24,726 nucleotides of DNA from Ramazzottius varieornatus (Eukaryota; Animalia; Tardigrada). Each line of letters starts with the position of its first letter. Position 1 is the first letter of the stretch. The notes below the pieces were generated by a model. The model saw only the letters and a program-made list of their open reading frames with translations, was not told the DNA's origin and ran no database searches. Positions 3,683 through 24,726 of this stretch are shown in pieces. The DNA lies in assembly GCA_001949185.1 (NCBI GenBank), contig BDGG01000020.1:351630-376355 (forward strand), given 5' to 3'. A program made the translations under genes and the position numbers.

Positions 3683-3806
3683 TAGAATTCGCTAATCGAC
3701 GGACCAATCCAAAGAGTGACACAATGCAGGCGCTATGTCGTAGTGTTGCTCAGTATCAAAAGACTTTTTTTCGTTTGGCTAACTAAGCAGTTACAGTCCC
3801 CGGCAA

Positions 3807-4000
3807 TAGTCATGGCAACCCCATAGTCTTCCTTTGCTTCCTTATAAATCCTGAACCCGTCAACCAATTTTCGTAATTTGAAAATCATTATGTAGAAGAT
3901 ACCTTGAAAGTTCTATCCACGTTGCAATCCGGTCGACTTTTCAATCAATAAAGTTTTGCAATAAAGGAAGCAAAGGAAGACTATGGGATGGCCATGATTG
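3807..4000. mobile_element. ~195-bp MITE with Tc1-like TIRs
   Basis: catggcaaccccatagtcttcctttgcttccttat (3811-3845) is inverted relative to ataaaggaagcaaaggaagactatgggatggccatg (3961-3996). Right end reads ...ATTG|TA; no coding capacity. Confidence 0.75.
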
Positions 4001-4296: not shown

Positions 4297-5939
4297 ATGC
4301 CGTATACCCCAGGAAACGACAACGAAAAGGATGGCGAGGATAGGGAGGAAGGAGCGGATGAAGGACATCGGGAAGTAGAAGCTGAAGCTGATCCTTCTTC
4401 AAATGCCTTAGCTATCGCGGTAGCCAGTGCACTGGCCGATCCGGTTCTTAATGATGACCAGGTCTACGCTGGTGTGGTTGGTCCTTCACTTAACCCGACG
4501 ATCGCGGGGCCGATTTACGAAGCTCTTCCAGTGTATTCAGGTTATGTCCAACCGGCGTATGACCAGGCAGGATGCAGCCATGCAGGGAACCCTCAAGTGG
4601 GATACAGCCAAGAGGGATACGGTCAAGCAGCACTCTTCACTCCTGGCAATGTGGCAATGGATACTGGGCAGGCATTTCCGGCTCTCAGCCAAACGGTCCA
4701 GTTTCCAGTATTCCACCAGCCTCAAGCATACAGCGGGATGAAATACATGCAGCCAGTCTATTATTGGTCGGGAACATCGACGGTAAGTCCACCTCAAAGC
4801 ATGGTGTCAGATGCGGAAGTACATAGTCTACTTGATATGGTTCGATAGTTTCCGACGACGGACACAGCACAGTGGTCCATAGTAGGCGGATATGGATATC
4901 ACCAGAATATGGCCGTCATTCAAGGGCAAGTGGCAATACCACCATCACCACCACCCCCACCAATGATGCCAGTCGAGGCTGCAGTACCGATGGCACCGGC
5001 GGTTCCAGCTGACTCTGGAGAACAAGTGGAGGAACCGACCTATGCTGAGCCTATTGTGCTGGATGAAAACCGACGAGGTTTGCCACTGGTACCACCACGT
5101 AAGCTTCAACTTTGTACGGTTAACATGCCAGGACGACATACTGACAAGCTTGTCTCTTCTGCAGCAACACAGTACGTCATCACGGAGGTGGACAATGGAG
5201 CACCGATGGCACCCTACAGCCTCCAAATTGGTAAGTTCCCTGGCCACTAATAGCATCTACTACAGACAATTGCACTCTGTTTTACAGTATTTCACGGAGC
5301 TGCGGGGATATCGGCCACCATGGAACATGAGGATGGTGCGACTCTGGTAACCATCACCGGCAACAACGCCGACGGTAAGCTATTGCGCTTAATTTGCCAG
5401 TGAGAACCGACAAAGAACCGAGCTGACCATGATTGTCTTTCTTTTGACAGAATCAAAAGCTGTCTTCGAATTTCAGCGGGAACACTGGGAAGTGGGAACA
5501 TCGGCGGAGCTGTTGCAGCATGGCCGCGTATCTGCGTCACCGGCGTGTCATTCACCAGGTTGCTGCCGGCGTTACTTTCGCGCTGTTCAGCCATCCAGTA
5601 GAGGACACCCTGGCATTGTCCTTGTCATCCACTGAGCGCCCTCCACTGGAGGGGCGTTACAAGCGAGACATCATCATCGCTGGCCACGCCCTAAGAGAAG
5701 TGGCCATAATGATGAACAAACGCAGTAACACGGTGTTTGGACAGCCGGGCAGGGGCGGGATCGCTCCTCGAGGAGCTGCCATCATTGGAAACCTCATGCA
5801 AGATAAGCGTTTTGACCGTTACGAAGCCTGTCTGGCAATGGACAATTTCGTTGTTGATTTCGTTCGCCATAGCGAAAGAAAAATTGCGCGATCAACGTTC
5901 AACAAAATTTTCGCTCACTTTTACCAACTGGGAGTGTAA
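4297..5939 (+). pseudogene. Spliced accessory ORF1: acidic/Pro/Gln/Tyr-rich N-terminus plus a globular C-terminus (possibly distant PC4-like)
   Basis: ORFs 4297-4848 and 4909-5250 share a frame and are separated by a single TAG (4846-48). Introns 5231-5287 and 5375-5450 (GTAAG...CAG, both phase 1) keep the frame: LQI-V-FHGAAG...NNAD-E-SKAVFEF. A frameshift near 5515 leads into ORF 5520-5939. Confidence 0.6.
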
Positions 5940-7873
5940 AGTTCGATCCTTGTCGCACTTATCCTTTGATGCGCTGCCGACGGCCATTGGTAAAATTCTT
6001 GGCTCAGTCTTCGGCGAAGTTTTGGCGGAAGTTGATCCACACGATAAGGTCTGAATCAGGCTGGATAGCGCGCCCTTGAGTTACCCGATATGGACACCGC
6101 CGATCCAGCGAGACCAGGTAACGATCGATCGCCTGATGGAAGAATCCTTCAGTCGCGAGATGATACTCTCACCATCTGGGTTCACCATGCAGCTGTACCA
6201 CGTGGAGGTTGTTTTGCGGTGGAAGCAGGGGAAAGTACGCTTTTGTACGACGAGCTTCAGCGCAAACGGTGTGTTATCTCCATTCTGAATACCGACGAAA
6301 TTTGTTTGCCGCGGGCCATTGTAGTGGGGCGAGCCTTGGCCGATGGGGACAAGAAGATGGCGGCACGTCTGTACAATGTGAAGAAGCCAGACCACTTTAC
6401 CGATAAAACGGCTCAGACCAAACAGGCTCTGGAGCTTATTGACCAGGCGGACTTGCCAATGCGACGGTACGATCTTCGAGATCTGGAGGCCTTCGGCCGG
6501 GTCCTCTCCGACTACATGTTTGTTGTGATCGGAGTGAAACAGTTAAACTCTGTCATGTTTGCCACCCAGTACAGAGAGAAAAAAATCACCGCTACTCCAC
6601 AGCCAGCACTTTGATGTGCTGACTTCGCTGCCGGCGTGGTTCGACAGAAACCAGTATTGTTTTCACTGCCTGAAGGCCTTTGACAGACGCGAATCCCACC
6701 GCTGCAGCTTCACCTGCAAACAGTGCCTGCGCCGTAATTGTTCAGCACGGGATACCGTAGAGCCCGCGATACATTGTGACGACAGCAACCGCAATTTCAG
6801 TGGGAATGACTGTTTCGCCGCTCACAAAGTGGTGCCTAATGTGCAGAACGAAGCGCCGATCGGACGTAGTATCTGCCAAAAGATCTACGTCTGTCGGGAC
6901 TGTCTACGATTCATATCAACAGTCAATCGGGACCCGAGTATGGTCCACAGCTGCGGGGAAGTGTACTGTCCAGTTTGTCGCGTGTATAGTATGCCGGGTG
7001 AGCACACATGCTGCATGAAGCCCCACATCATTACAGAAAAGGAACTGCGAGAGCACCAGGAAGCGCGATTCCTTTATTTGAAACGTATCAGTCGGATGAC
7101 GGCGTATTCGTTCACAATGTGGCCGTGCTGATGGATGACCAAGATACGGTGACGGTCTTCCCTATCGACAAGAGCCACATCACCGGCGATATTATTGACG
7201 CCGTTTGCAACTTCATTTTTCAACCGGCGCATCGCGGATTTTATGTACTGGCTCACAATTTTCGGGCATTCGATGGATACTTTATCTTGAAATGGCTCAC
7301 AAAGAATGGCGTGGTGCCGGATGTAATTTTGGACGGATCAAAAATTCTCCGCCCGGACGTTAAAGAATTTGGAATAAAGTTTCGCGACACCCTTAGCTAT
7401 GTCCCGCTGTCCCTCTCCAAATGGGCTACAACGTTTCAGGTGGATCAAGCCAAGGGCTGCTTTCCCCATCGTATTATATAACAGTATCGGCGTGACCGGA
7501 GGAAAAAGAAGAACAAGTTTGATGTTAACCGCGAACTGATCAGTTACTGCGTACAAGACGTTCGGACTCTGAAAGCCTGCGCCGAATCTCTACGTCAGCA
7601 ATTCCAGGACCTATCCGGTGGACTGTATCTTTTCTTGTGCTTTGACCATCGCGGGAGTGTGTGGATACTTTTGGAGATGCCGGATGTTGAAGGGAGTGGA
7701 AGTAGAGCTGGTGCATTGACCGTCGAAACGAGCTAGCTCGGTCAAGGCTCAGAAGTAGTTGCGCATGGCGGCTAACGAAGACAATGTGCTCGACCTGGAA
7801 ACGGAAGTACACATTGGATCGTATTACGTCGATGGATTTGATAACCGCACATCGACAGTATACGAATTTTACG

Positions 7874-7931
7874 GTGAGCCGGCAGTTTCTCAGGTGAGTA
7901 AAACGGGTCTACACCCTGCTTTTTATCACAG
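7874..7931 (+). other. pPolB intron 1 (58 nt)
   Basis: GTGAGC...TTTTTATCACAG; splicing gives YEFYG-CLNHRH...SMDDLFRR, in frame with ORF 8000. Confidence 0.85.
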
Positions 7932-8180
7932 GGTGTCTCAACCACAGACACGATACGCACACTCGACCGGAAACTATTCATCCTTGGCTTAATCAGTCCA
8001 TGGATGACCTGTTTCGCCGGACCATGGCTCGAGAACGGCAGATCATCCAGCTGGGCTACCGTGTCAAGTCGATCTGGGAATGTGAGTTTGACCGGCTGAT
8101 GAAATCCGACGCAAGCCTACGGAAAGAACTGGACTTGGCCGGCATTGTGACACGCCTGGATCCGCGTGCCATTTTATACG

Positions 8181-8248
8181 GTAAGTTAGACATGGACCTT
8201 AGACATGGACATGGTCATACAGCGTCCACGACTTGTTGTTTGGTGCAG
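8181..8248 (+). other. pPolB intron 2 (68 nt)
   Basis: GTAAGT...GTGCAG; splicing rebuilds the YxGG motif LDPRAILYGGRVNA. Confidence 0.92.
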
Positions 8249-8333
8249 GTGGACGCGTCAACGCTAGCGTTTTGCATCATCGATGTCGTGCTGGAGAGGA
8301 AATCCTTTACCGAGACGTCATCTCAGAGTATCC

Positions 8334-8393
8334 GTGAGTCATTGGACGGTTCCGCAATAAGTTCTGTTCGTACGTACGTGTGCACATCCGCAG
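8334..8393 (+). other. pPolB intron 3 (60 nt)
   Basis: GTGAGT...CCGCAG; splicing rebuilds motif A YRDVISEYPFVNKTKRYPVG. Confidence 0.92.
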
Positions 8394-8777
8394 GTTCGTC
8401 AACAAGACTAAACGGTATCCAGTGGGCGAACACACTGTCATTACGCGCAACTTCCCCACTGACGTAACGGCGTACTTTGGCCTACTCAAGATAAAGATAC
8501 TACCACCGCGGAAACTGTGGATCCCCGTACTACCGTACCGTCCAGTGTTACGAGGTGTGGCATTACCGCGAGTCGAGGGAACGACTTTTCGCCGAAAACA
8601 TAGACCACTTTTCAGCCTTAAAAACACAAGCTTCTGGTTGGCCCACCGGAGTGAAAAACGGGGTGGAGAAAGAGACGTTTCTACGAGACTTCCTTCAGAC
8701 CGAAGGCGTTCAGTTAGACAGAGAAAAAAGGAGAAAAATCCTGGTATGAGAGCACTGGCCAAGCTCTGTTTGAACAG

Positions 8778-8834
8778 GTAAGGGGCAACATACACCTTCA
8801 CAGTCCATTGCTATCATGTTTATTTTTTCCCTAG
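8778..8834 (+). other. pPolB intron 4 (57 nt)
   Basis: GTAAGG...TTTTTTCCCTAG; splicing rebuilds motif B KLCLNSFxGK. Confidence 0.88.
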
Positions 8835-9038
8835 TTTCTTGGGAAAGTTGGCGATAAGTTGGAGATAATAAACCTGCTACCGTCTTCATCAAGGACCCAC
8901 ATAAATTTCACGAGTTTGTCAATTCAACTCAGTACAACGTCACATCCTTCGATCTGATTAACGATGTACTGCAGCTATCGTATACGTTGCAAGAGGAATT
9001 TGTCGAAACCAACCCGAAAACTAACGTGGTTTGGCAGC

Positions 9039-9113
9039 GTAAGTACACACGCCCAGACAGCACCACAGACTGAGAACGCGAAGACAAACAGATAAAATTG
9101 CTTTCATGCGCAG
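9039..9113 (+). other. pPolB intron 5 (75 nt)
   Basis: GTAAGT...GCGCAG; splicing rebuilds NVVxAAFTTAHARL (needs a 1-nt frameshift correction at ~9030). Confidence 0.88.
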
Positions 9114-9745
9114 GTTCACAACGGCCCATGCTCGGTTGCATCTGCTGCAGTATGTGGAGATGTGTGAAAGGCGGACCCTCTACTTTGACACTGACAGCAT
9201 CATCTATGTGTGCGGTGATAGTGATATCCCCTTGCCCACGGGAAATACTCTGGGATGTTTGACCAGTGAGCTGGAAGAAGGAGAACACATTGTGGAATTC
9301 TGTGCCACGGGCACCAAGTCTTATTCATACATTACCAACAAGGAGCACGCGGTCTGTAAAGTAAAGGGTTTTACGCTGACGCGCAGTGCTGAACAAGTCA
9401 TCAACTTCCACACCATGCGCGACCTATTGACGGTTCCCGGTCCCCAAGTTTTGCCTGTCCGCTATCCGTTTAACATTCGGCGCCTCAAGAGAGCGCTGGA
9501 GATCGATGCAGTTCCCATGGTGAAAAAGTTTAAGCCCACGTATACGGGTAAACAAGTGGCCGATACAGCGACGTGGGTCAGTACGCCTTATGGCTATGAC
9601 ATGGCTCTGTTATAGTTTACTATGGTTTCTTGTCGCATTTGCCTGCTGTTGTATTTTATCACTGGACGTAATAAAAGATGGCTGAAGAAGCGAACGCGCC
9701 AGTTCCGCAGCGGCTTGACACAGGCCGGGGTCTCCGCGCAAGCGG

Positions 9746-9848
9746 AAAATTTCAAAAATGTCTGAAAGAGCCAACGTCATTTCACCGTTTAGAGTGGAAA
9801 GTATGTTTGGCAAATACAAAATTTCAAAAATGTCTGAAAGAGCCAACG
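9746..9848. repeat. Perfect 31-nt direct repeat (9746-9776, 9818-9848) between the convergent pPolB and IAP genes
   Basis: aaaatttcaaaaatgtctgaaagagccaacg twice, 72 nt apart. Confidence 0.9.
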
Positions 9849-10378
9849 AAATGACAATAACAATGATCAAGGTTAGACCTGTAAGAAGTGCAGAGAGGAG
9901 GAGACAGACCAGGAATTCCCGCCGATGCCATGATGGAGGGCGACGGTGAGACAGAACTAGCTGGCCGGCAAAAGCATGAGCTACTTAAATGCCAGTTCCA
10001 AGTTTTAAGACAAGAAAATTTCTTTGCGGTCGCGGATCAGCTGACGGCACACAGGGCACTACGTCATGGCCGTGCCGCAGGGTCCGCAGGTGCAGACGTG
10101 TTGGCACGGCTCGAAGAAGAGCGACGACTGGAAGTCCAAGCAGATCTTGCAGCGCAGAATATTCCGCAAGGCTTCCTCATTACCGTTGGTCAACTACGCT
10201 CGATGCTCGTCGCGCATCGCTTCCTGGGTGATCATGGTCTGCTTGCGTTCTTCAATGCGTTTGAGTGTCACGTAGCTCCAGACAACATCATGCGTCGCGT
10301 CCAGGTCCAGCACATGCTCGGCATGACCATAGTCATCGGGCCAGTGCAGACGGATGCGGCGCAACAAGGCTTGCTTAC

Positions 10379-10515
10379 CTGAAAATACAAGAAAAAAAGA
10401 AAAAATGTCCATCAATTTTAACTGGTCAGTAGTGAGGAGGAGAAGGTCGTTTCTAAGAAGTGACTTTCTGCTCTGGCCCGTACTTTCAACTGGGGAAATT
10501 CCACTCAATGCTTAC
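10379..10515 (-). other. IAP intron 2 (137 nt)
   Basis: GTAAGC...long polypyrimidine tract TTTTCAG; phase 1, keeps frame LES-KQALL. Confidence 0.8.
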
Positions 10516-10716
10516 TTTCCAAACCGCGGTACAAGGTGGCTGGATGACCGCGCAGGATGGAGCAGACATCATTGACGGAACGGATGCCACGGGTGTTGAT
10601 GACGAAGGCACAGGTTGCTGCCGCCTGCACGTGTCCCACCCACGGGTCGACATCGTTGCCGCGCACCTCCACTTGGACATCGCAATAGAAACAGCGCACG
10701 ATGGCGGGGAAGCCTC

Positions 10717-11003
10717 CTGTAACAAAAGAAGTCAGGACATCAGGAGAGAGAGAAAGGCGTAATATCGATCTGCAACAAAAATAACGGCAGTCAAGGACTC
10801 GATATCCCGACAAGTAACCCAACAACGGTCCGTCGGGACCGCGTAGCGGTCGGACGGACCATTGTTGGGCCTTTTGAGAAAGGGAAAATTTTGTCAGGCA
10901 AAAGGCTGGCTTTGGCCGGCCCTTTCTCAGTCTGGTGCCGAAACTAAGCTGCTGAATTGCGCGGCCCAGGGAACGACTGAATCAAGATGATATGCGAACT
11001 TAC
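10717..11003 (-). other. IAP intron 1 (287 nt), splits the BIR domain
   Basis: GTAAGT...TTTTGTTACAG; phase 1, joins AGFYFR to RGFPAIVRC. Confidence 0.85.
10818..10869. repeat. Strong 52-nt hairpin inside IAP intron 1
   Basis: cccaacaacggtccgtc / gacggaccattgttggg (16/17 match) plus inner gaccgc/gcggtc. Confidence 0.85.
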
Positions 11004-11598
11004 GTCTGAAGTAGAAGCCGGCCATCGCTAAGGAAGATGCCATGCCCCACAGTCGCGTGGGCCAGTATGGATTGCAGTAGGAGACGAAACGAGCTGCGTA
11101 TGATGACATGTCACGACGCTTGGAGGCTGGCAGGGTCATGCAGTGCTCCAGGGCGTCCTGCAGCGGATCGACGGTGGCCGGGTATCCGGGATTCAGGGTG
11201 CCCTGGTTCTCCAAATCGTGCTGGCTCATTCGTCCTTCACACAAGTGTCATCGACGTCAGATTCATTATCGCTGTCGGTGATGCCATGGTCTACGTTGTT
11301 GGTGACGAAGAAGCTACCAGGAGCCCCAGCACTGGGCACGGATGCAGGTAAGGCCGGGGGTGAGGTAGGCGTACCATGAAATGCCGGGCAGGCCATGATA
11401 GACACACAAAGAATGGACAAAGGGGACGAAGCGTTGCCTATATCCCAAAATCCACCAAATTCGAAGGTACCGTCCCTTTGTACGCAAAGACCTCGGCGGT
11501 TGCGTGGCGTAAAATCCATATTAGCAGTGTGGCGTAAAATCCAAGCAGACACTGTTGCGTGTGAGGCCTGTCTTCCTTCACGCCTAATGACATGGCCA

Positions 11599-11632
11599 TA
11601 TAAAAGGCCGGACTGTTTTCATTCATTCATTC
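11599..11632 (+). promoter_or_regulatory. RNA polymerase II core promoter: TATA box + initiator for the PC4-like gene
   Basis: TATAAAAG at 11599-11606; overlapping TCATTC Inr-like motifs with an A at 11629, 30 nt after the TATA start; first ATG at 11749. Confidence 0.7.
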
Positions 11633-11748
11633 ACCACCGCTGCCGCCACCGCCGCCGATCTCCATCCGTTTCGAAAATTTTTCTCATTTGGGCGTGCCTC
11701 ATTACAGCCTGGGTCTCGTTACTGTCTGTGTGGGTCATTTTAGGTTGT

Positions 11749-13503
11749 ATGATGGACATGTACCACACCACCACCGCTTCTGGTCGTCACCAGCAGCCGT
11801 AGCAGCAGCACCACCATCAACTGCACCACCAGCACCCTTCATCCCAACCGCGTCCCTCTCAGCCACAGCAGCAGCCACAACCGCAGCAGGTTCAGCTAGT
11901 CCCGCAACGACGAGAAGCGCTCCATGAGGCTCACCAAAATGGACAAGTCCGACCCGGTACGCAAGCGCCGTCAGCGTCGCCATCGCCTCCCCCCAGGGCT
12001 CCACCGTATCGGACAGCCAAGAGCCGGACCAGTGCGAAAATGACGAACTGCTGCTGGCCGCTTTGCTGGAAGAATCCCAAGATATTGTGGACGTTTCCAT
12101 GCCTGCTCTCGCTATTGCCAACGGTCCTGGGCTTACTGGCGCTCCTGCTGGCCTTCATCGTCCAGCCGCTGCTGCTCAACCATCACCTTCCGGTACACCA
12201 GCCAGTCAGCAGCAACAACAACAAACACAACAACAGCAACAGCAAATGGCACCACCTCCCAACCTCACCAGGACCAAGACAGTTCGCGTCAAGCCTCAAG
12301 TTTCCAAACTGGACCTGGTCGGAGGTCAACCACTGGTGGCCAACGATCAACCGACCACAGCACCTACGCCATCTCCTAGCGCTGTGCAGTGTAAGCCCAA
12401 GTTCCCCACTGTTAACCACGGCTCTAAGAATGCTGCGCTCCCACCTCAGCGGGATCAGCAAGACTTTGTTCTCCCAAACAAGAACAACAACCGCTACGTC
12501 AACGAGGATCCCAACATTGAGTACAAGCGAAATTTCCCCACCGGAAAACCAGCCTTCTTGTACCAAGGGTTCCCTGTGATGAAGTTTGGGTGAGCTCCTT
12601 GAATTTGGATGGTCGTTCCGTTACTTTATTTCCTCTTTTGCCCCTTTGCAGGTACGACAAGTTCTGCTGTCTGCGCTTGACGGATGAAAACGAGCTGGAA
12701 GCTGTCATTGGCGATTTCACCTGCGATCCTCCGGGCTCGGGCAAATGGGAACCGAGAGCCAAGCACGTGGTCCTCGAGATAAGGAGCAACTGCTGCGCCT
12801 AGTTGGGCTCATCTTCAATAACTTCACGACCAACTGCCGTGACGCCAAGGTCGCCGATACCGGTGCCAAGGTGTCCTCCATGTACAACCTGGGGAAGGAG
12901 GTCTACTTTGTCTGGTGTGCCTACAACGACACGGCCATGGCTAACGTCCGCCAGTACTTCCGGCGCGCCAACGGTGACATGCAAGCCACCAGCCAGGGCG
13001 TCTCGCCAAAGCCTACGACTCCTTCCGGACCGGCATCATGGACCTGACACTAATGATGGAGGCTGAGAAGTGCTGAGCTTCCGCACTGGCCCAATCCCTC
13101 CTCTCCCCAAACCCAACCTGCAAGAACTGATCACGGGCTTGCCCTTCGTCATGTTCAAATAATGGCTCTTGCGACTGGAAGAAAAGTGTGACAAGTGTCA
13201 GCAGCTCCGTCTGGTCTTCAAGGAGCCTCTGCGCCGGCATGCAGGCCACCACACCTGTCACCGGGGACGAACGGAGCTGACCTTGGACGAATGCATGAAG
13301 GCGGACATTTTCCGCGATCTTCTCCACAGCAAGCGGGTCTTTGGTGGGTGAAGGTTACAGCGGGCATTTTGTTTGTTAGTAGAATGCAAAAGCACCTAAC
13401 GATTTTAACCGCTGCAACTTCTGCTACAGGTATGCTGCTCTTGCTGAAGCCCTACGGAGATGCCAGCAACTTTGACAACTTGCTGCTGTTCCCGGTGGAG
13501 TAG
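11749..13503 (+). pseudogene. Gln/Pro/His-rich protein with tandem PC4 (Sub1/p15)-like ssDNA-binding domains and a CxxC...HxC motif; spliced, 3' end uncertain
   Basis: Intron 12590-12651 (GTGAGC...TTTGCAG) joins MKFG-YDKFCCL. YNLGKEVYFVWCAYNDTAMANVRQYFRRANGDMQATSQGVS resembles the PC4 core ([42 protein letters not shown]). A more divergent repeat FGYDKFCCLR...GKWEPRAKHVVL.KEQLLRL precedes it; CDKC...HHTC follows. Several stops and frameshifts. Confidence 0.7.
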
Positions 13504-13518
13504 TCTCCTCCAAACCAG

Positions 13519-13584
13519 GTGAGCACCGGAAGATTAATTATGCCTCTCTTTTGACCATAAATTAATCCTTCGGTGCTCACGCAG
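13519..13584 (+). other. Probable 66-nt intron that is almost entirely a hairpin
   Basis: CAG|GTGAGCACCGGAAGATTAATTATG...CATAAATTAATCCTTCGGTGCTCAC-GCAG|GT. Confidence 0.65.
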
Positions 13585-13713
13585 GTTTCACCATAGCCAA
13601 CACATCACCTGGTAAGGACCAACGGAATTACTTAGTGCTGTACCAAGTCACTGAGTATTCTTTGGTTTTTATACAGGCATCCTATATCTCCACGCCCATC
13701 AGCTAGCGTCACA

Positions 13714-14256
13714 TCACTCGACAACCCAACACCGCAATACTAGTTTGCCATTTTCTTTATTGCAAATTTGTCTAATTAGTGTTGTATTGTACACCCGTGT
13801 TTTTAGATCGAAACAGCTATTCACAAATTGACAAACCATCTTGTTGTTAGCGCGTGTGTTATCAGTAAACAAGTGCATAAAATCTATGTAAGACAATCGG
13901 CTTGCTCGTTTAAAAACAGACATCATAGCATACTGTCCACACTTTGCAGAAGCCGGCTGTTGAATTGTTCGGCACTGCTGTATAATTTTTAGCCCTTCCG
14001 TGAGACTTTGTAATTTAGGATTGTAGCTCCTCAGTGGTCTACCGTAACTGTCAAATGTTTCAATGTAGCCAGGATTGTCTTGGTAAAACGCCACCCAGTG
14101 AGTGCCACCACTGGTGCTATCAGAGCAGTTGGCAATGTAGGCCGACGGGAGTTCCTGACTGGGGTGGGGCAGCTGGTCGGCAGCAAAGACTCCCCGAAAC
14201 ACTGCAGCGGTAACCGAGCATGCCCTCATGGCACTGTCAATCTGCCACGTGTTCAT
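13714..14256 (-). CDS. Adenain-family (Ulp1-like/C5) cysteine maturation protease, uninterrupted
   Basis: MNTWQID...FRGVFAADQLP...IANC...GTHWVAF...FDSYG...IQQPASAKCGQY: His, Asp, Gln and Cys catalytic residues present. Confidence 0.93.
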   Translation of the reverse strand: MNTWQIDSAMRACSVTAAVFRGVFAADQLPHPSQELPSAYIANCSDSTSGGTHWVAFYQDNPGYIETFDSYGRPLRSYNPKLQSLTEGLKIIQQCRTIQQPASAKCGQYAMMSVFKRASRLSYIDFMHLFTDNTRANNKMVCQFVNSCFDLKTRVYNTTLIRQICNKENGKLVLRCWVVE

Positions 14257-14257
14257 T

Positions 14258-15662
14258 TCACGCCACAAAGTCGGTGACGAGCTGACGGAAGGTATTTATT
14301 TCTATCAGTAAATCAAAGTACAAAAGGCTGACACCCATCAACATCTTTGGCAAACTAGGGATATCGTGACGTCTCCCTGTTTGATCAAGCCCAGGGCGTT
14401 GCGACCACAGCCGCTAGGGCTGAGGTCGAAAGCAAAGAAAGTGTAGCCTTTAGCGTATCCGTCCCTCTCGAAAGGCAAGGAACCTCCCGGTGCGTGCTTC
14501 CTTCCTAGGACGTCCAAGAGACCGTCGAAACCCTCCAACGAGCGTCCCGTTTCAAAGTCCACCAGATACAGTTTGGACGGGAAGGAGACCCCATCGACTT
14601 GCAGAGAAATCTGGGTGAGATTTTTGTGAACAAAGTTGAGCGGATTAGTGTGGAGATTTCCCTCGAAGGAGTCCGATTCCACCAGCGCGAAAATTGACAT
14701 TTTGGATACCTGAAATAGCCGAAATTAGTCCCGCTATACTCATAACGCTGTCGATCACTCCATCACCTGTCCCATGTGGATATTTGGTAACTGCGTCCCA
14801 GTCGCTCCAATTGGGATATCGATCACACGGAAGAGCTGCTTTTCCAACTGATACTTTGCCGTTGTCGTCACCAGTTGTTTCGCCAAAGAATTCATGAAGT
14901 CAGGAGTTCCGACGTAACGCCTGATCAGCAGGCGTGGGTTTCGAATAAACCCTCGATGCTCCTGCCTGGTGCCAGAAGATCGTTGTCACCCCAACTTCAT
15001 AAATAGGAATACCGGTGAATTGAGCTGAAAGCGGATGTGCACGGGTACACCTGTCACCAGGTTTTTCTCCTGTGATGTTACATCCGAATAGACTTTACCC
15101 GACAGCTGCACCCACTTATGAGGGTGAACAGCTTCTGTCTCGCTACCTCCCCCTTGTTTTCTGCAGCAGTGTCCATCGCACCCGGAGTGTCGTAATAAAA
15201 CCAGCGGAGGCCAGCGCAGTACGAAGAGCCCCTTCGGAGTGCGTTGTCAAAGCTTCAATTATTGCCCGCTACGGGTAGTGTTGAGCGCAGTCGGAAACCA
15301 GGCGACTACAGAGTGATATCTGAACAGACCTGAACAGGCTGTGAGCGATCAAGTTCACCGGTGCAACATTGTCATCTTCTGACAGCTTCCCATAAGTTAA
15401 TGTTGACTTTTCGTTCTTGAATTGATAATTCAAGTTCGAACGATAACTCTGGCAGTGCCAGCAATGCATCCGTATATGGTGGAATGTAGAACGTCATCTC
15501 GCCCAGGGCGGGCAGATTCTCGGGTATGGCAGCAGTGGGTGCTATACGTTCCTCTTCAACACGGTATCGATCAGTTAAGGAGGCCGGAACGGAGAACAGG
15601 TTGGAATCGGCTGCCGTTGCCGGCTCCGGTCCTTCCAAGGTGAAGACGTTGACCGCAGCCAT
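14258..15662 (-). pseudogene. Major capsid protein (Polinton PY, double jelly-roll), frameshifted, one intron
   Basis: NLFSVP; PVNLIAHSLFRSVQI...HYP*RAIIEAL; TAKY; IPIG...MGQ|VSKMSIFALV; FEGNLHTNPLNFVH; GYTFFAFDLSP; IEIN..RQLVTDF. Stop abuts the protease ATG. Confidence 0.9.
14710..14766 (-). other. Major capsid intron (57 nt)
   Basis: CAG|GTGATG...GACTAAT...TATTTCAG|GT; contains in-frame stops; removal restores the GQ-x-x-K motif. Confidence 0.82.
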
Positions 15663-15665
15663 TTT

Positions 15666-16083
15666 TTAAAAAGTGTCAGGAAAATCGCAAGCAGGAATTC
15701 GTTTCAGACGAGTGGCGGTTCGCTTGTGTCGGCCGCGACCTGACGTCCTCAGTAGTCTACGCCGAGGGTGTTGCAGCGTGGGACGGCGTTGGTAGCGCTG
15801 GCGACGAGCTGACAGTGATGGAGCCACAAGAGCAGCAGGTTCCAACCCGGAGCCGCTTTGCTCAACGACCTCTGCACCAGTTTTTGGTGTCAATACCGAA
15901 GAAATTTTCTGCGCTATACCTTTACCCGCTTCATTAAAGACACTTTGTGCAGCCGTACTTAAATGCAGCTTTGCCGACTCCATGGCCGATTTTACATGCG
16001 GCATGGCACTTCGGACTAGCGGCGCGGCGAAACGTGAAAAGCGGGATGCCGCGGAAGAAACTTCCTAGACCTGCCCCGTTCTG
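15666..16083 (-). pseudogene. Basic virion core-like protein (PZ-like), 5'-truncated
   Basis: QNGAGLGSFFRGI...RFAAPLVRSAMPHVK...QSGSGL...Arg-rich tail ending DTF; located between the penton and major capsid genes. Confidence 0.6.
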
Positions 16084-17084
16084 ATCCTTGATAATTTTTC
16101 ATAGGAATGGCCTACATGGGTATAGGCCGCCACGTCACAGTAGATGAACAGCGACTGGTCGCCGAGATACAAGTTAATGCATCGCTTGGAAATTACTAGG
16201 TACGGTAGTTCGAGCACTGACAGTTTGAACTCATTCGGATACCGGTTAACGAGGTACCATACGCTTCTGTCCGCTTCCGTCAAGGGTTCATCTTCTCGGG
16301 GCCAAAACCTCGGCGTTTGGTGGGTAGTGGACGTGTCTGCGTAATTCTTCAGTCGATCTTCCATAAAATGGAATGCCGGACTGTCGGCAGCGCTGACGAT
16401 GGACTGGTTCTGGAAACCCAGCATTTCTTGTAAACGCGTAGATGCTGGCGGGAACTTTAACCTTACACGTAAGCTGGGAAAATGCACCCTTGCTTTACGT
16501 TCACTGGTATGGTATGAGAAGGCGAACGCCTTGGTTCCCGCTGACGGAGTGTGCTTGTGATTCTTAATGTCCTTAAAGTCCTCACCCAGTGTTACCGGTT
16601 CCAGGGGCGGTATTTGGCTGCCGATAACATGGAAAAGCTCGGCCAAATCGTAGATCACGGCGGGTACAGTAATTTCGTGCTCTTGAAGATGAAAGTACCC
16701 CTCTGTCCGTTGTTTCGGACGCGGTAAAAGTTCGTTCTTCTCTTTATCCAAACGAATTCCATAGAAGGAATTCGGCTTACGCCTGGTAGGTGCCAAACCT
16801 TGCGCCACTCGTTTAAAACTGGCGATTTCCTCTTCGGCGTCCTCTCGATGGACACACAGACCGATCAGCACAATTTGCTGAACAACAATTTTCTGATCCT
16901 CCGGGATGTTATACATTGAATGCGGGTAGATTAGTTCTACCAAAGCTACTTCCCACGTTCGGGATTACAACGCAATGGGTGCATGCAATCGAGTACTCCA
17001 AGAAGCCGCGTTGTTTTTCGGATGAATATCGCACAAAGCGTCAGAAGGCAAGGTAACATAAAATGGTCTACTTACCGATACCAT
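16065..17084 (-). pseudogene. Minor capsid protein/penton (Polinton PX), one stop, C-terminal deletion
   Basis: FYVTLPSD...HPKNNAASW..RL..PIAL*..WEVALVELIYPHS...EMLGF...SLFIYCDV...VG. Confidence 0.85.
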
Positions 17085-17089
17085 GATGT

Positions 17090-18020
17090 CTATTCACAGT
17101 TGGCTAACTCGTATCAATAAAAAAGCCCCAGAATCTCCTCTCCGTCTGTCTCGCGCACTTGGTAGATGGTCTCGGGAACGCACCTGATAACTTTGGAGAT
17201 GGTACAAATCTCGTCTTTAAAGTTCGGTTCGTAGCCCTTGGAGTAAATATCTTTCGTGACATTGATGCGCACTTTGTCTCCCACCCTAAATACTGCCTTC
17301 GCGGACTCCTCTCGAATTAACTTGCAATACAGACGGTTGAATACGAGCAACGAATTATCATCGTTGACGTCATTTGGAGCTAGTTGGTGAGTTGAATGAG
17401 TGGTCGCATTGTATTCGGCCACGATATGCGGTAGCGCGTCATAATACTTGACCGAAGGAATGCGCGCTGCGAACAGTCCCATATACGCTGACGTAATCAT
17501 CCTTTCCGCCATAGTCGCCTTGATCTCATCGTTCTCCGTGGAGAAGTGAACTATATCATGTTTTTTACATAAAGCAGCCACTTAGTTACAGTAAAACTCT
17601 TTGCCTTTACCTGTCTGCAGTTTTTCAGGGATGCTAATCTCGTTAAAAACTTTTATCAAGGCGTCTCAAACTAGCGCTCCCTCTCACCAATTCACCGAAG
17701 TCTTACCAATTGGCAGCTAGCTTTCTTACTGAAACAGTCAACGACAACGAGAGCCCAATTGCAGTGTTTATTTTTCGGAGCGACGATTGTCATGTCCATC
17801 ATGTCCATCATGTCCACTTGGAACTGATGATGACTGTCGTGGACGACTACTGGATTGCGTCGAAACCGCCTCCGACGTTGTTTCTACTTTTTGTACGCTG
17901 GGATTCGATTCAACAGGCGCTGAGCTTCCGCAGTACTCATGGAGGTCGTTTGCGCTCGTCGATACTTCTCGACTCCGCCAAGCTTCCCGCCTGTTTCGGA
18001 TCCTCCTAGTCGGTGGGCAT
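17090..18020 (-). pseudogene. int: Retroviral-like (rve, c-integrase) DDE integrase
   Basis: DPKQAGSL/GG; RRRFRRNPV; QFQVDMMDM; VVVDCFSKK; LQTGKGKEF (catalytic D changed to G); KATMAER; YNATTHST; FRVGDKVRI; KGYEPNF; GEEILGLFY. Multiple stops and frameshifts. Confidence 0.93.
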
Positions 18021-18049
18021 GACTAATAACCAGGTCCTCGTCCTCTCCG

Positions 18050-18538
18050 TCACAACAAGATTACTATCCAACGAGGTAAAGTCGGTATATTCATTCGACC
18101 AAGACCGCCCTGAGTTTTAGCTTTTCTTTCACGAAGACGACGCGGTGAAACTACCAGTGGTTCCGCGCTGTTTAAATCCTCGACCAGTTTTGATTTCGCA
18201 ATGCGTCCATGTCGCGTTACTAGTCCACTCTTCGGCGCTACGCGAGCTTTAGGCTGCTTTGTTGCCAATCCTGTTTCGTCAGACACTGGTGGCATAGGTG
18301 GAGCAGAGGGAGGTAGCGGCGGCAGTTGCGGCATGGCCGATTCTTCCGGAAAGGCTTGGGCCTTGTGTGAGAGGAACATTGCAGGTTGTCAGACAACATC
18401 TGTGCCTTAGTCCATTCAGACAGGTCTGAACGAGCCAAAATTTCCGCAAGAGAGTTGACGCCGAAAGGTGTTACACTGCCGTTGACGCCATTTCGGCATT
18501 TCCCTCATTACAGAATAGTAATCTGATTAGGTTGCCAT
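18050..18538 (-). pseudogene. Conserved-type small Polinton ORF (core-like), frameshifted
   Basis: EILARSDLSEWTKAQMLSDNLQ followed by a Pro-rich then basic tail with QGGLG and a terminal W. TATAAAT lies ~30 nt upstream of the ATG (18572-18566). Confidence 0.5.
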
Positions 18539-18966
18539 GCGGATCCTGAGTAGCTTACAGTCTAAATTTATAGCTGGAGTCAGTCACTGTTTCACGAAGT
18601 GAGCACATCAGCTTTTTTCTCGCGCCCTCCCTCCCCATCTCCAGACGTCCCTTGTATCGTTGTTCCTTTTCTCTTCTCTAGAATAATGATTTGAACCATG
18701 TTTGGTTTTCTTGTAGTTACATTTTTATCTATTGCGGTTCGTTGTGTAGATGGTACTCAGCTTTTAGCCCGAGAAAACCTCTATACCGTTTTATGTATCG
18801 TCTGTACACGTATATTCTGCACATCTATCCTATGTTCAGCCGGTGCTCAGTTTGTGCTCGAGTAAGCCGCTCAACGCAATGTATTTCTTTATATACCTAT
18901 ATACAACTAAACGAGGGGGACTGTGCGAAGGCTGGGCAAATGGCTTACGCAATTGTGTATATCCGC

Positions 18967-19182
18967 CTACCTTGACAGTTTACCTTCATTGACCCCAAGT
19001 ACTTCCGTGTTCGTTAGGTCCGGGCGTCAAGAAAGTTTATCGAGCGTCAGGGCGGTGAACGCTTCGGCGGCCTCCCGTTTAGCCAGTACATCGTTGATGG
19101 ATGGTGGTGCCAGACCCCGAAGAGCCCCCGTTCCTGTCTGCGTCAGTTCCTCGAACCTCTTCATATCGCGCTCGGGGACCAT
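18967..19182 (-). pseudogene. Small Polinton ORF remnant, possibly paralogous to 18050-18538
   Basis: MVPERDMKRFEELTQTGTGAL...KLS*RPDLTNTE. Confidence 0.35.
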
Positions 19183-19201
19183 GTAAAGAGTCTGCTTGGT
19201 G

Positions 19202-19525
19202 TTATTGGCTCAGAACGGACCCCACAACCGACGCCAGTACAGGCAGTAGCGCCGCAAAGAAACCACCTTTCTGCAGGAGGAGATCCCTCTTATACGTCAT
19301 CGGGTACGTTTTCAGTGCCAAGTTTCAAGGGCTTTTTCCAACACTGACAAACTTTCTTGTCTGTTTCCGACAGCTTTGCCGTGTTCTTCACGATGTTTAA
19401 GGCCACTTCCTCAAATGCTCGAATGTGACTTTATCGCAAAACTTTAACAGCAGTCGTCGTTGAGCCGGTTTGAGAGACTTCAGTGCGACCAGGTAAAGCG
19501 CAAGGCGATCAATTTTCTCCGACAT
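19202..19525 (-). pseudogene. Small Polinton protein ending in a protease site plus amphipathic/hydrophobic peptide
   Basis: MSEKIDRLALYLVALKSLKPAQRRLLLKFC...EVALNIVKN...LLQKGGFFAALLPVLASVVGSVLSQ*; frameshifted; directly downstream of the ATPase. Confidence 0.65.
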
Positions 19526-20189
19526 CGTGCTCGGATCCGGTATAAACTCGTACTCGTTGACCAGGTAAGATATGACTCCGGACTCTTAAATCTTCTGGAC
19601 AGTCGGATTTCAAGTCGATCATCGCGGGCTCAAATGGATGAGAAGTAGCTTTCTTGTACGCCAGGCTTAAATCGTGCTGTCCTGTTTGTTTGGCCAGCAG
19701 TTTTATCTGACCGACATCGCGCAGGTTTTTAAATACGATCATGTACGAGCAGTTCAGATGCAAATTGCGCATACTTTTTCCCTGCTGGAAAATATTTTGT
19801 CAGATATGCAGGCAGTCGACGTTCCGATGATGAATTCCTCGCGTGAACAGATCGCTGGCTTTCCGATTTTCGGCCACTGTCGATGCTAGATCATCCAAAA
19901 TTAGCAGATTATTTTCTGTTTTCGTAAAAAAGTTCTCATTGTCTAAAATGTCTGCGAGATTTTTCACAAACTCGACTTTTGGCTCAACAGTCAGCATGTT
20001 ATCGTAGGCCTTCTGCCACTCGGCATACGCGAAAACTATTCGAGTTGGAGGACGATCGAACGTTTCACCCTTATTTTTCAGCAGCCGAAGAACATACAGT
20101 GTTTTTCCAGATCCTGTGGGGCCCATGCAGAGAGCTCCGAACGGAGAGCGAAACCGAAAATCGTACTCCACCGACTTGAACTTTGACAT
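19509..20189 (-). pseudogene. A32/FtsK-like DNA packaging ATPase, one frameshift at ~19810
   Basis: Walker A GPTGSGKT, Walker B LLILDDL, FTRGIHHRN, QNIF...RNLHLNCSYMIVFKNLRD..QI. Confidence 0.93.
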
Positions 20190-20772
20190 GACTGCCGTTA
20201 TCAAAAACGTGGTTACTACAGCAGAACTGGGATGCCCAATCAATCTACACCACTTGAGCACGTGTGATATAATGGCGCACTATGTCCCTGAAAAGTTTTC
20301 CGGCCTCCTCATACGGAAACTAAAACCGTTTAAATGCCACTGCCAAGTGTACCGCAATGGAAAGATAACGGTCAACGGAGCTCGGTCGACGAAGCAGGCT
20401 AAAATACACGCAAATATGTTTCGCAATTTAATCAAGAAGCAGGGCTACCAAAACGCTAAAGTGAGAAATTTCAAGGTGGTGAATATTGTGGCTAGCTTCG
20501 ATCCGGGATCTCCGGTTCAGCTGAAAACCTTGCGAGACTATTTCGATCAAGTGACGTTCGAACCAGAAAGATTTCCCGGAGCTTCTTCGTTCAGGCTACC
20601 GAAGACAGACACAACATGTGTCATGTTTCGTTCAGGAAAATGCAATTTTCTGGGTGCCACAACTGAGTTAGACATAAAAGCGGCAGCATTGGAGGTTATG
20701 TTGACTCTTTCGTCCGTTGATTCAGCTCCTACCAACAAGGGAAACGACGATACGGCAGATACCCTTGCATGA
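20188..20772 (+). CDS. TBP: TATA-box-binding protein (TBP)-like, 194 aa, intronless, uninterrupted
   Basis: Two TBP repeats: IKNVVTTAELGCPINL...YVPEKFSGLLIR...VYRNGKITVNGARS and FKVVNIVASFD...FEPERFPG...VMFRSGKCNFLGA. No N-terminal extension. Confidence 0.92.
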   Translation: MTAVIKNVVTTAELGCPINLHHLSTCDIMAHYVPEKFSGLLIRKLKPFKCHCQVYRNGKITVNGARSTKQAKIHANMFRNLIKKQGYQNAKVRNFKVVNIVASFDPGSPVQLKTLRDYFDQVTFEPERFPGASSFRLPKTDTTCVMFRSGKCNFLGATTELDIKAAALEVMLTLSSVDSAPTNKGNDDTADTLA

Positions 20773-20986
20773 AGTCCGTGTCAAAGACATCGCTGAAGCT
20801 AGCGCTGCTGGAGCTGCTTCGGTCCGACGATGCTTGGTTGGTGCTGCCGTTGCTGCCCAGAAGGATTTCACCTTCGTTATCCGCGGCATAACCGTCAAGG
20901 TGGTATGGTAGCATGGTCGCGTCCAAGGGGTCGGGATTGGCCTGGACTGGGGACAGCAGACCGAACTCTCCATCATCATCCGCCAT
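20729..20986 (-). CDS. Small acidic/Ser-rich hypothetical protein, convergent with TBP
   Basis: ATG-initiated 85-aa ORF with biased composition; no recognisable motif. Confidence 0.25.
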   Translation of the reverse strand: MADDDGEFGLLSPVQANPDPLDATMLPYHLDGYAADNEGEILLGSNGSTNQASSDRSSSSSASFSDVFDTDFMQGYLPYRRFPCW

Positions 20987-21247
20987 GGGTCAGAAGTCTA
21001 GATGGAAAAACAACAGCGTTCAGCCAAAATGCACACAGAAGAAAATTCGCACTTTACAGATGCAAAACGCACCTCACACGCTTCTCGCCAGCCCTTCAAG
21101 CGGATCTCCTCCGATACATCGCCTTCTTCACCTGTAAAGACAGATAGGCCTACAGAGTAAGAAGTCACTCTGCAAAACCGACTTTTCACCTCTGACGATA
21201 GTGACGTCATCCAGTGCCGGAGTAAAAAGTAGATTATGGAATTTGTT

Positions 21248-21299
21248 GCCTCCCGTCCACATATTACTCTACCGCCTCCCGTCCACATATTACCGTACC
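21248..21299. repeat. 26-nt tandem duplication
   Basis: gcctcccgtccacatattactctacc / gcctcccgtccacatattaccgtacc. Confidence 0.85.
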
Positions 21300-21751
21300 T
21301 GCGGTGTCCGGGTACACGCGCCAGAAATTTTCTCCCCGGTATCGAATGCTGCGAGCCTCAAAGCTAGTACGGAAGTCACGCATCCAACGACGGACAGAGA
21401 AGCCACACCCTTGTTGCGCGATGGTCAAGCACAAAGATCGTAGGGCCCTAGTGACGATGCAGAATCCCGAACTCTCTTCTGGCGGAACGACAGTAACCAC
21501 ATGGCAGAATAAGAACGAGTGCACACGGTGTTGGGATAGTACAGATAGTGACGGAGACAAAACTGACCGGTCTTCTCAAACATCCAAGCGGGATAACACT
21601 AGATACAAAAACCCTGCCGCTCAGAACGGTGACTCTCACAACCCACCATTTCGTCCTCACTGTCCGACATCTTGCTGACTAACCACTTGTCCACCTCGCT
21701 CCAGCGGTCTTATGTAGGCCGCTGTGCATAAAGACACGGTCGTGCATCAAA

Positions 21752-21850: not shown

Positions 21851-22301
21851 AAAAACACCCTCCTGATAACCATCAAAACATTAAGCATGTGCTTTTTATC
21901 CGGCTCATTAACTCATGGACGCTTCCTATCCGGCCATTGTCCGAAAAATGCTCGTGATCCTGGGACTGGGCACCCCATTATTCTTTGCCACCAAGAAAGA
22001 TATCCATCTGGTGACCTGCACGATCGAATTAGTTCTGTATTTCGAAGGTTCCTCTCCTTGCTGTGAAAACTGCGCCTATACGCTTGTGCTGAGAGTATCT
22101 ACACCTTTCTATCTAAAATCCGAATGCTGCCTGAGAAAGATAGCCATGGACAACCTTTTCCCGTACCCTATGATGTCATTTGTTTCCGGTGAAATATGAA
22201 AAAAAAACGGAAAGTTGAATAACGATGTATGTCCCAATATCTGTGGTTTTGATACAATGACGTAGACCCGACTTAGAAAGTAATGGCATGTCAGACCATT
22301 A

Positions 22302-22455
22302 CCAGCGTAAGAAGTCGGCTTGAGAGGTGTACNNNNNNNNNNNNNNNNNNNNNNNNNNNNNNNNNNNNNNNNNNNNNNNNNNGTCCATGCAGAGCCACGC
22401 CCTATACCATTGCTGGAGTAAAAAGTACACCTCTCAAGTCGACTTCTTACGCTGG
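22302..22455. repeat. 31-nt inverted repeat (30/31) flanking the assembly gap; probable transposon TIR copies
   Basis: ccagcgtaagaagtcggcttgagaggtgtac (22302-22332) vs gtacacctctcaagtcgacttcttacgctgg (22425-22455). Confidence 0.8.
22333..22382. other. Assembly gap (50 N)
   Basis: Run of n. Confidence 1.
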
Positions 22456-22875
22456 CTATGGCCTCTTTGTCCGGAAATGGCGCCGCATAGGACCACAGCC
22501 GTTATTTTCCTCCTGCCAAACATGTACGAGGGAAAGGTTGTTGAGTTAGCCGGCCTATGTCGAGGTTGTTCAGTTAGCCACATATTTTCGCCTCTTATCT
22601 GTGACTAATATCCCAATTATTTCGGATGGATCGATAGAGAAAATGAGGGGCTGCCGGATAATACTATGTGTAACCAAAGATGGGTTCTGGAAGACTCTAC
22701 GGATCTTCATATTTTAGAACGCTTGAATCGCATGTTGCAGAGCCTGGACCGGAAATGAACTCGAGGCCACTAGAGGCGCTCGCAGCGTAAATCTAGTTGA
22801 CGACGTGACTTGATTTTATACGACAGGGCCAAATTCCTTTTGCTGCACTTTTTGTATTTTCACCGTAAGTCAAAA

Positions 22876-24131: not shown

Positions 24132-24726
24132 GGGATAATCGACCCTATGATCTGAAGCGGGTTCCGCTGTTTTACCTCTTAATCAGTATTCTGACCTCGA
24201 TATTATTTGTTTTATTGAATAACCACTGAGAAGATTTCAGGGAAGTGTGATGAGCTGGTTATGCGATGGATAGTTTAGTCGCGAAGATGTCGAAATCTAC
24301 GTTCTGTGTATTTGACGGTATGGTGTCCACTACACCGCAGTTTGAAAAAGCGCTATTACTTATACCACGACTCAAGGCTATAGCACTGCCTGTGCTCCAC
24401 CACATACCGCAAGGGTGGCTAACTAAACAACCTTTCTCTCGTACTCTTACTACTAGTGAGCAAGGAATTGAACCTGACTGAGAAAAAATCAGTAGTCTCG
24501 AAAATGCGCGAACCTATTACAGGTACTACCCTCAGGTTATTTCTGTTCTGTTTCACTCTTTATCAAACATTTATTCCAAATCTCTCCCGTCTAAGCAACC
24601 TTTGAATTGTATTAGAACTGAAAGCCCAACCCTCTGACTGGGGAACGTCAGAAGATCTTGCGCTTCCAGCTTAGTGAACTACCTGGCTGCTACGCCTATA
24701 GCACTTCACTTGGACCCTGTGCAGAG

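Follow-up and report, generated by a model that had tools for sequence, protein, structure and literature searches.

The window analysed here, a 24,726-nucleotide (nt) stretch of the tardigrade Ramazzottius varieornatus (GCA_001949185.1; contig BDGG01000020.1, 351,630–376,355), contains a decayed integrated copy of a Polinton of the adintovirus-type lineage. The element departs from described Polintons in its spliced replication-side genes and in an altered, element-borne TATA-binding protein (TBP), while its inhibitor-of-apoptosis protein (IAP) and PC4-like genes are known accessory types. On the plus strand lie a spliced left-hand gene (4297–5939), pPolB (~5950–9615), the PC4-like gene (11749–~13800) and TBP (20188–20772); the minus strand carries IAP (10005–11229), a virion cassette extending from 20189 down to 13714 and a right-hand gene (20760–21670). 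From 20189 the cassette reads ATPase, pX-like gene, an open reading frame (orf) without family, integrase, likely minor capsid, PZ-like gene, major capsid and protease. The first-pass annotation, which had placed a Polinton core, TBP, a PC4-domain protein and a BIR-RING IAP in one element, is borne out by family matches, with the minor capsid assigned by position and motifs only. We propose, tentatively (probability roughly 0.35), that this is an undescribed polintovirus lineage with a two-stage nuclear programme, in which spliced replication and anti-death genes would be followed by the action of a re-tuned, captured TBP on a private ATTTAAG box before a nearly intron-free cassette. The narrower proposition, that the altered TBP served as a late switch, activating the virion cassette by way of a TATA-like box that departs from the standard, seems rather probable.

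Gene comparisons were made with L001, a distant intact relative and the only locus recovered from 198 pattern matches in a metagenome scan; homologous proteins or gene models are given P numbers, and sequencing runs whose contigs were compared with the window are given X numbers. The TBP homologue (PF00352, E 2.4e-34) is intronless and open over 194 aa. In both the window (20187–20190) and L001 (4653–4657) the start codons of TBP and the ATPase overlap head-to-head on opposite strands, which places the promoter of each gene within the other. In L001, TBP (47% identical to that of the window) is likewise head-to-head with the ATPase, followed by pX, orf, integrase, minor capsid, PZ and major capsid, all open and in the same order as in the window as far as the contig reaches. 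Seven TBP relatives form a family at 43–73% identity (10 matches among 58 candidates), and one of them, P0015, has an N-terminal extension that reads like ATPase antisense. On the linkage and synteny in L001, the overlapping starts and the P0015 extension, TBP is a gene of the element.

The predicted TBP model (pLDDT 82.6) is a two-repeat saddle, with TM scores of 0.75–0.85 to cellular TBPs (0.81–0.85 to the eukaryotic ones). Identity to cellular TBPs is 26–31% (TM up to 0.85), compared with at most 20% to giant-virus TBP-like proteins (TM up to 0.75), so that the protein resembles cellular TBPs more than the TBP-like factors of Nucleocytoviricota. Capture from a cell is the simpler reading, judged from identity and fold, and the link to giant viruses drawn in the first-pass annotation does not hold. 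As in cellular TBP (PF00352), the full two-repeat saddle is present, but identity is only ~30%, there is no N-terminal extension, and the changes L114Q, F116Y, V122T, T124N, V213N and T215L separate the two. Across 16 aligned sequences, many of them close kin (yeast TBP numbering), L114, F116, V122, T124, L205 and V213 are replaced in all 16 by Q, Y, T, N, V and N, respectively, and V203 is replaced by T in 15, while F99, R105, N159, E188, F190 and F207 are retained in all. The glutamates that contact TFIIB are kept (E186 in 14/16, E188 in 16/16), as are N69 and N159; three of the four intercalating aromatics remain Phe and the fourth is Tyr. By its residues, this is a family homologue with an altered DNA-binding saddle rather than a canonical TBP. 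The altered-specificity yeast mutant TBPm3, which also reads TGTA, carries three changes (PMC1636458, in the part available), two of which, V203T and L205V, are present in the element TBP.

The motif ATTTAAG was first noticed by eye and then tested. L001 has six copies, all on the cassette strand where 0.24 are expected, making it the top-ranked 7-mer of that strand; none of 60 simulated sequences had a 7-mer as strong, and none of 200 shuffles reached six. These boxes lie 36–262 nt before the ATPase, pX, integrase, minor capsid and major capsid genes, with two before the last. Two of the window boxes, both on the minus strand, fall in the same codons as L001 boxes: 19666–19672, 147 nt before the pX-like gene, and 15958–15964, 302 nt before the major capsid gene. 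A one-mismatch form precedes the minor capsid gene of the window. For ATAAAC, TATAAGA and TAAGA no pattern was seen before cassette genes. We regard ATTTAAG as a good lead from one relative, a candidate rather than an established promoter; together with the altered saddle it fits the earlier suggestion of changed promoter recognition.

Seventeen candidate GT-AG introns of 57–287 nt were identified in the window, an eighteenth having been dropped for lack of a proper donor. Eight of the 24 listed runs were compared, all as contigs; X1 is of DNA type, and the RNA type of the others is a guess. Nine candidates are seen spliced in RNA-type contigs, five are supported by homology and three by sequence alone, so that 14 of the 17 have RNA or homology support, in agreement with the initial estimate of at least 11. 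None of the nine intron joints was found in DNA-type run X1. The left-hand gene contains four introns (plus strand; 4783–4848, 66 nt; 5099–5164, 66 nt; 5231–5287, 57 nt; 5347–5450, 104 nt), all spliced in X18 and all except the second also in X19; a donor at 5375 considered for the fourth is absent from the contigs, which use 5347. pPolB has five (plus strand). Those at 8181–8248 (68 nt; depth 4) and 9039–9113 (75 nt; weakly seen, depth 5, short side 21 nt) are spliced in X19 and also supported by homology, while 7874–7931 (58 nt) separates peptides that are contiguous in homologues, 8334–8393 (60 nt) corresponds to a 20-residue gap against P0026, and 8778–8834 (57 nt) splits a motif contiguous in P0029 and P0034 but is unspliced in X5 and X14 contigs. 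The X18 and X19 contigs that provide these six joints are ~95% alike the window. Both IAP introns (minus strand; 10379–10515, 137 nt; 10717–11003, 287 nt, inside the BIR) are spliced in X17, and the right-hand gene intron (20998–21072, minus strand, 75 nt) in X5, X12, X14 and X17 (four runs, two studies) but not in X1; for these three the contigs are identical to the window or nearly so.

The PC4-like gene has two introns supported by homology (plus strand). At 12590–12651 (62 nt), residues 49–50 of P0085 are contiguous across the intron and P0084 appears to start with read-in from the same acceptor; at 13344–13429 (86 nt), P0087 is contiguous across it, and similarity to P0084 and P0086 ends, presumably by read-through. 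The gene calls of these relatives (P0084, 74% identical; P0086, ~49%) thus begin or lose similarity at the intron positions, and we read the two introns as common to the relatives, on the evidence of these gene calls; relatives at ~40% do not have them. Two further introns are predicted in this gene from GT-AG ends and a pyrimidine tract (13519–13584 and 13612–13676, plus strand), with no RNA or homology support, and one in the major capsid gene from sequence only (14710–14766, minus strand). This last is the only one of the 17 candidates in the cassette plus TBP, which make up 41% of the length (P 0.002), and none of the 14 supported introns lies there (P 0.0007). Nine of 15 joints in the comparison that included X14, X17, X18 and X19 match predicted introns; the other six, and five of six in the one that included X1, X5 and X12, are not introns but deletions, a 72-nt tandem duplication at 9746–9848 and an inversion. 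In the same interval the window shows two exact 31-nt direct repeats 72 nt apart, and X18 shows the 45-nt spacer inverted beside 4299. Dependence of the replication-side genes on the spliceosome, with five introns in pPolB itself, is supported, and with the element-borne TBP and the two shared PC4-gene introns it upholds the claim of a distinct spliceosome-dependent Polinton lineage.

pPolB (start approximate; PF03175, E 2.6e-13) is damaged by several stops, frame changes and one deletion near 8545. The closest named relative is RvY_19139 of R. varieornatus (89% over the C-terminus), and the other 12 of 13 homologues, including oyster and sea-anemone models, are 33–51% identical, with oyster Polinton-type pPolBs at ~40%. 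The left-hand gene, with a Pro/Ala/Gln-rich start, has no Pfam match and is likely 5′-truncated in this copy; the sibling model P0026 has part of it in front of pPolB, and it may be the N-terminal part of pPolB.

The PC4-like gene (end approximate) is broken. Its product begins with a long N-terminus rich in Gln and Pro, followed by two PC4 repeats, of which one is clear and the other likely, and by a conserved Cys-x2-Cys…His-x-Cys segment (13140–13345), which relatives show to be part of the protein. The second repeat is weak in the window copy (E 0.012–0.024), but exceeds the Pfam cut-off in the 74% relative P0084 (E 5.1e-6; 26.3 bits vs 25). Four relatives were found (five matches), all matching PF02229, one above the cut-off, and the family profile matches human PC4 (6ycs) at E 7.8e-5, with repeat 2 gapless over 58–60 residues. 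For the first repeat all three PDB matches at E ≤ 10 are PC4 (E 0.076–0.13), and a repeat-to-repeat comparison was not significant (hhalign 9.6 vs a shuffled mean of 8.9). Of the tandem PC4 arrangement described at first pass, the second repeat therefore stands, while the first is only suggestive. A word-index search with repeat 2 returned nothing, and ESM Atlas only unnamed matches below 0.8. The protein resembles the single-stranded DNA (ssDNA)-binding domain of PC4/Sub1 (PF02229; PDB 1pcf, 6ycs, 4agh; phage T5 4bg7) in its gapless repeat 2, and differs in having likely two repeats per chain, the Cys/His segment and a long disordered N-terminus.

The IAP, located between pPolB and the PC4-like gene, has one BIR (E 5.7e-5; Cys-x2-Cys-x16-His-x6-Cys) and a C-terminal RING (E 2.4e-10). 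The window copy is RING-less at best, owing to in-frame stops near 10196, ahead of the RING, and near 10061, inside it. The spliced X17 contig is identical to the window. An X14 contig differing at 65 of ~540 letters over 10709–11244 (IAP exon 1 and intron) represents a second, diverged IAP copy. Oyster (Saccostrea) models, including P0034, combine pPolB and BIR-RING in a single protein and fall in one cluster with several 180-aa ‘host’ IAPs; Polinton cargo may account for part of the expansion of IAPs in bivalves. The accessible part of PMC13159474 names neither Polintons nor Mavericks.

In the programme that we propose, the left-hand gene, pPolB, the PC4-like gene and IAP, for which splicing was observed or is supported, would be read by RNA polymerase II (Pol II) of the host and processed by the spliceosome, presumably early. 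pPolB would then copy the genome by protein-primed strand displacement, and the two PC4-like repeats would likely form a dimer within one chain and cover the strand set free. With its retained fold and TFIIB-contact glutamates and its changed DNA-reading surface, TBP would likely recruit host Pol II to ATTTAAG-type boxes before the nearly intron-free ATPase-integrase-capsid-protease cassette, to which it is linked. By analogy with its family, the BIR-RING protein would postpone the death of the host cell.

A functional parallel is with beta- and gamma-herpesviruses, whose viral TBP is a large, distant TBP mimic. These viruses use this protein with TATT late promoters (PMC4893493, as far as that text is available). 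The proposed system would be similar: in both, a DNA virus of the nucleus that encodes no polymerase for transcription would have its late genes expressed with the help of a TBP-like protein and a TATA box of unusual sequence, the function in the element being predicted. Whereas the herpes late factor is one of six viral proteins (PMC7498053, in its accessible part), the element TBP is a bare core of 170–200 aa, close in fold to cellular TBP. The likeness is offered as an analogy, not as shared membership.

Several observations weigh against this programme. Introns are retained in a number of contigs (X5 records 24 and 26, X12 record 9, X14 record 1), six of the nine spliced introns come from the ~95%-alike contigs, which may represent another strain or copy, and both pPolB joints come from one run at depth 4–5, in data that consist of contigs from runs whose RNA type is guessed. 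The third TBPm3 change, I194F, is absent from the element TBPs (S in 15/16), and TBP is reached by a spliced transcript in antisense orientation, with no sense-strand TBP transcript in the contigs. In the window ATTTAAG occurs four times (three in the cassette) against 3.0 expected, which is not significant alone; a test of the 120 nt preceding each of 16 start codons gave no enriched k-mer, and the box is supported by one distant relative, with widely varying distances to the ATG. The predicted PC4-like model is poor (pLDDT 40), giving no Foldseek match at E ≤ 0.001 (8 of the 10 top rows are nevertheless PC4/Sub1) and nothing above Z 4.2 with VIA-align, and the first repeat is weakly supported. 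The evidence for linkage of IAP within this lineage comes from the window copy. A TBP that lacks a dedicated promoter box and works as a general booster, or as a decoy occupying host TFIIB, NC2 or Mot1, would account for the six changed DNA-facing residues, several from hydrophobic to polar, alongside the kept E186 and E188, and for the lack of significance of ATTTAAG in the window. Retention of the intercalating aromatics, N69 and N159, and the strong enrichment and strand bias of the motif in L001, make this unlikely, although it is the most serious of the alternatives, and a TBP directed to its own box is preferred.

Gain of the introns in the host after integration, in which case they would say nothing about a mobile spliced lineage, has a precedent in introner insertion into integrated dinoflagellate Polinton-like elements (PMC11957031, in the part available), and is consistent with the ~40% homologues that lack the introns and with the difference between L001 and the window in the integrase intron. 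It is made doubtful by the breaks in the P0084 and P0086 gene calls at the same two PC4-gene positions, by the sibling model P0026, which skips the same pPolB stretches, by the intron in the otherwise open cassette of L001, and by the finding that, of the 20 largest repeat families listed, none connects the introns. The idea that the PC4-like protein is a transcriptional coactivator working with TBP as a ‘kit’, put forward at first pass, draws on the best matches to human PC4 and fungal Sub1, PC4 being a Pol II coactivator. The matched part is the ssDNA-binding domain, however, the phage T5 homologue is tied to DNA replication (PDB 4bg7 title), adintovirus maps with SSDBP and MOSUB labels show no TBP label in the figure available, and the gene lies on the polymerase strand, ~7 kb from TBP and in a different module. 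We consider such a kit improbable. Binding of ssDNA is a property of the matched domain (PDB titles), and strand displacement by a polymerase requires an ssDNA-binding protein, so that a replication role is the simpler assignment and, from the domain match, more likely than partnership with TBP. Finally, TBP, PC4 and IAP might be host genes among which Polinton pieces inserted, as the host-type introns of IAP and PC4 and the lack of a terminal-repeat pair or target-site duplication in the window would allow. Each of the three genes is either decaying or located within a single stretch of core genes, the relatives of the PC4-like protein make up a small family that does not resemble cellular PC4, pPolB and BIR-RING are fused in oyster models, and the ~30% identity of TBP to cellular TBPs and its synteny with the cassette in L001 largely refute this for TBP; the explanation is very improbable overall, and we retain the view that these are genes of the element.

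The element shares pPolB, rve integrase, ATPase, protease, double-jelly-roll capsid and a pX-like gene with adintoviruses and animal Polintons-Mavericks (PMC8502044; PMC8097293; both in the parts available). IAP and Bcl2 were reported in adintoviruses by Starrett et al. (bioRxiv 10.1101/697771; PMC8502044), and labels in the accessible copy of their Fig S2 include IAP (Mytilus, Pinctada) and, on other maps, MOSUB and SSDBP. Novelty of the IAP and PC4 genes is accordingly not supported. MOSUB we take to be MoSub1, a PC4 homologue. In the available text of Starrett et al. the only mentions of TBP are in legends on MELD viruses, apart from the maps of animal adintoviruses; no TBP label was seen on the animal maps themselves, but a TBP or spliced gene may still be present in annotated maps. 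Intact vertebrate Polintons are described as intronless (PMC8097293), and in nematode Polintons core genes are intronless, with introns only in cargo genes (10.1101/2022.07.12.499685), in the accessible parts of both sources; unlike these, the window has five introns in the core gene pPolB. No animal Polinton with TBP or spliced core genes was found in the literature searched, which left out Repbase and most subscription papers. Dinoflagellate Polinton-like elements carry introners and resemble the window in having spliceosomal introns within such elements, but introners are repeated, transposon-derived and mostly post-integration (PMC11957031, available part), whereas the window introns are short and unrelated and some appear common to relatives.

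Most genes of the window copy are broken, and it is no longer functional. Stops or frame changes interrupt the ATPase, pX-like, integrase, minor capsid and major capsid genes, all open in L001, as well as pPolB and the PC4-like gene, and IAP has in-frame stops; open frames are kept only in TBP and the protease (180 aa). Domestication of TBP was considered from this pattern and rejected, two open frames of ~550 nt being unsurprising at the estimated density of breaks. With a decayed copy and no particle evidence, the real infectious cycle suggested at first pass finds no support here. Because X18 and X19 contigs part from the window at 4299, the left end of the element is likely missing, while on the right related sequence continues to 22317 in the contig comparison. 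The span first given, 4297–21670, thus describes a run of mostly broken genes whose left end is likely missing, in an element that extends to at least 22317 and perhaps 24454. A candidate right terminus, ACTACT (24449–24454, plus strand; end motif as in PMC8097293, in its available part), lies beyond a 50-N gap (22333–22382) and a DDE-type transposon (22524–24444, plus strand) that is bounded by 33-nt inverted repeats and entered at a TA in what is likely the right end of the Polinton; the transposon is pogo-like by eye and gave no match in a Pfam search. No AGTAGT partner is present left of 7754 in the window, and neither a terminal-repeat pair nor a target-site duplication was found there. 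A 40-nt inverted repeat at 22293–22464 flanks the N gap, and 22407–22427 repeats 21211–21231.

Several related copies exist, with 22 contigs at 90–95% identity in X1 and the sibling model P0026. An internally deleted derivative in X1 and X5, without 5265–6593 and 6762–7502, fits gene model RvY_19139. IMG/VR scans gave no locus with TBP alone (4 matches), the TBP alignment (35), the ATPase alignment (150) or the pPolB C-terminus (4), and none of 71 matches in a GTDB scan with the TBP alignment was related.

Within the cassette (minus strand throughout), the A32-type packaging ATPase (19509–20189; PF04665, E 3.2e-5) is 53% identical to that of L001 over 220 aa and has an in-frame stop near 19800. 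The broken pX-like gene (19197–19525; Adeno_PX, E 0.057) is 40% identical to its L001 counterpart, and the broken retroviral-type integrase (17100–18020) 49–50%. The L001 integrase matches rve at E 6.8e-7 and is split by a 59-nt GT-AG intron (L001 2329–2387) beside a catalytic-core motif, where the window has no intron. The likely minor capsid (penton) gene (16065–17084), broken and 43% identical to the L001 gene at the expected place, has no database family match; we assume its identity from position and motifs. The conserved gene at 15666–16090 is 33% identical to an L001 gene in the equivalent place and is presumably PZ, a name that, like pX, rests on position and motifs. The major capsid gene (14300–15662), broken and 52–57% identical to that of L001, had no PDB sequence match; in ESM Atlas it gave matches at 0.95, in one cluster set of which 19% of the members carry PF21738 DJR-like, and a Capsid_NCLDV match at 0.92, with a low recognition score, and the presence of a double-jelly-roll major capsid protein is accepted on these matches. 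The adenain-type cysteine protease (13714–14256; PF00770, E 2.6e-4) completes the cassette. At 18450–18620 summed X1 depth is 550–900 with loose ends on both sides, pointing to a short repeat of high copy number that the cassette either shares or has received by insertion.

The right-hand gene is broken, has no meaningful Pfam match and has its last exon antisense into the TBP gene. In X12, X14 and X17 contigs (minus strand, 20334–21133) an exon absent from the window is joined to an acceptor at 21132, followed by the 20998–21072 splice; this transcript covers the 3′ half of TBP in antisense (X17 depth 39), and may be one of the host that took up exons of the element, or may reflect antisense silencing. 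To the left of the element are a decayed Tc1/mariner-type transposon with inverted ends (2243–3684; DDE_3, E 1.2e-12), a MITE-like pair of 34-nt inverted repeats 120 nt apart (3810–3997), and a 176-aa open frame running off the window (3–530, minus strand) with no Pfam match.

For Polintons in general, spliced core genes contradict the working rule that these genes are intronless, and searches for long open frames would miss such lineages or call them ‘degraded’. The TBP family constitutes a natural set of altered-specificity TBPs, and an altered, self-encoded TBP with a candidate box makes the questions of how Polintons control their genes and whether animal Polintons make particles directly testable. 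If true, the two-stage programme would amount to the late switch of herpesviruses reduced to one protein, within an element of 20 kb, and would provide a handle on when animal Polintons make particles.

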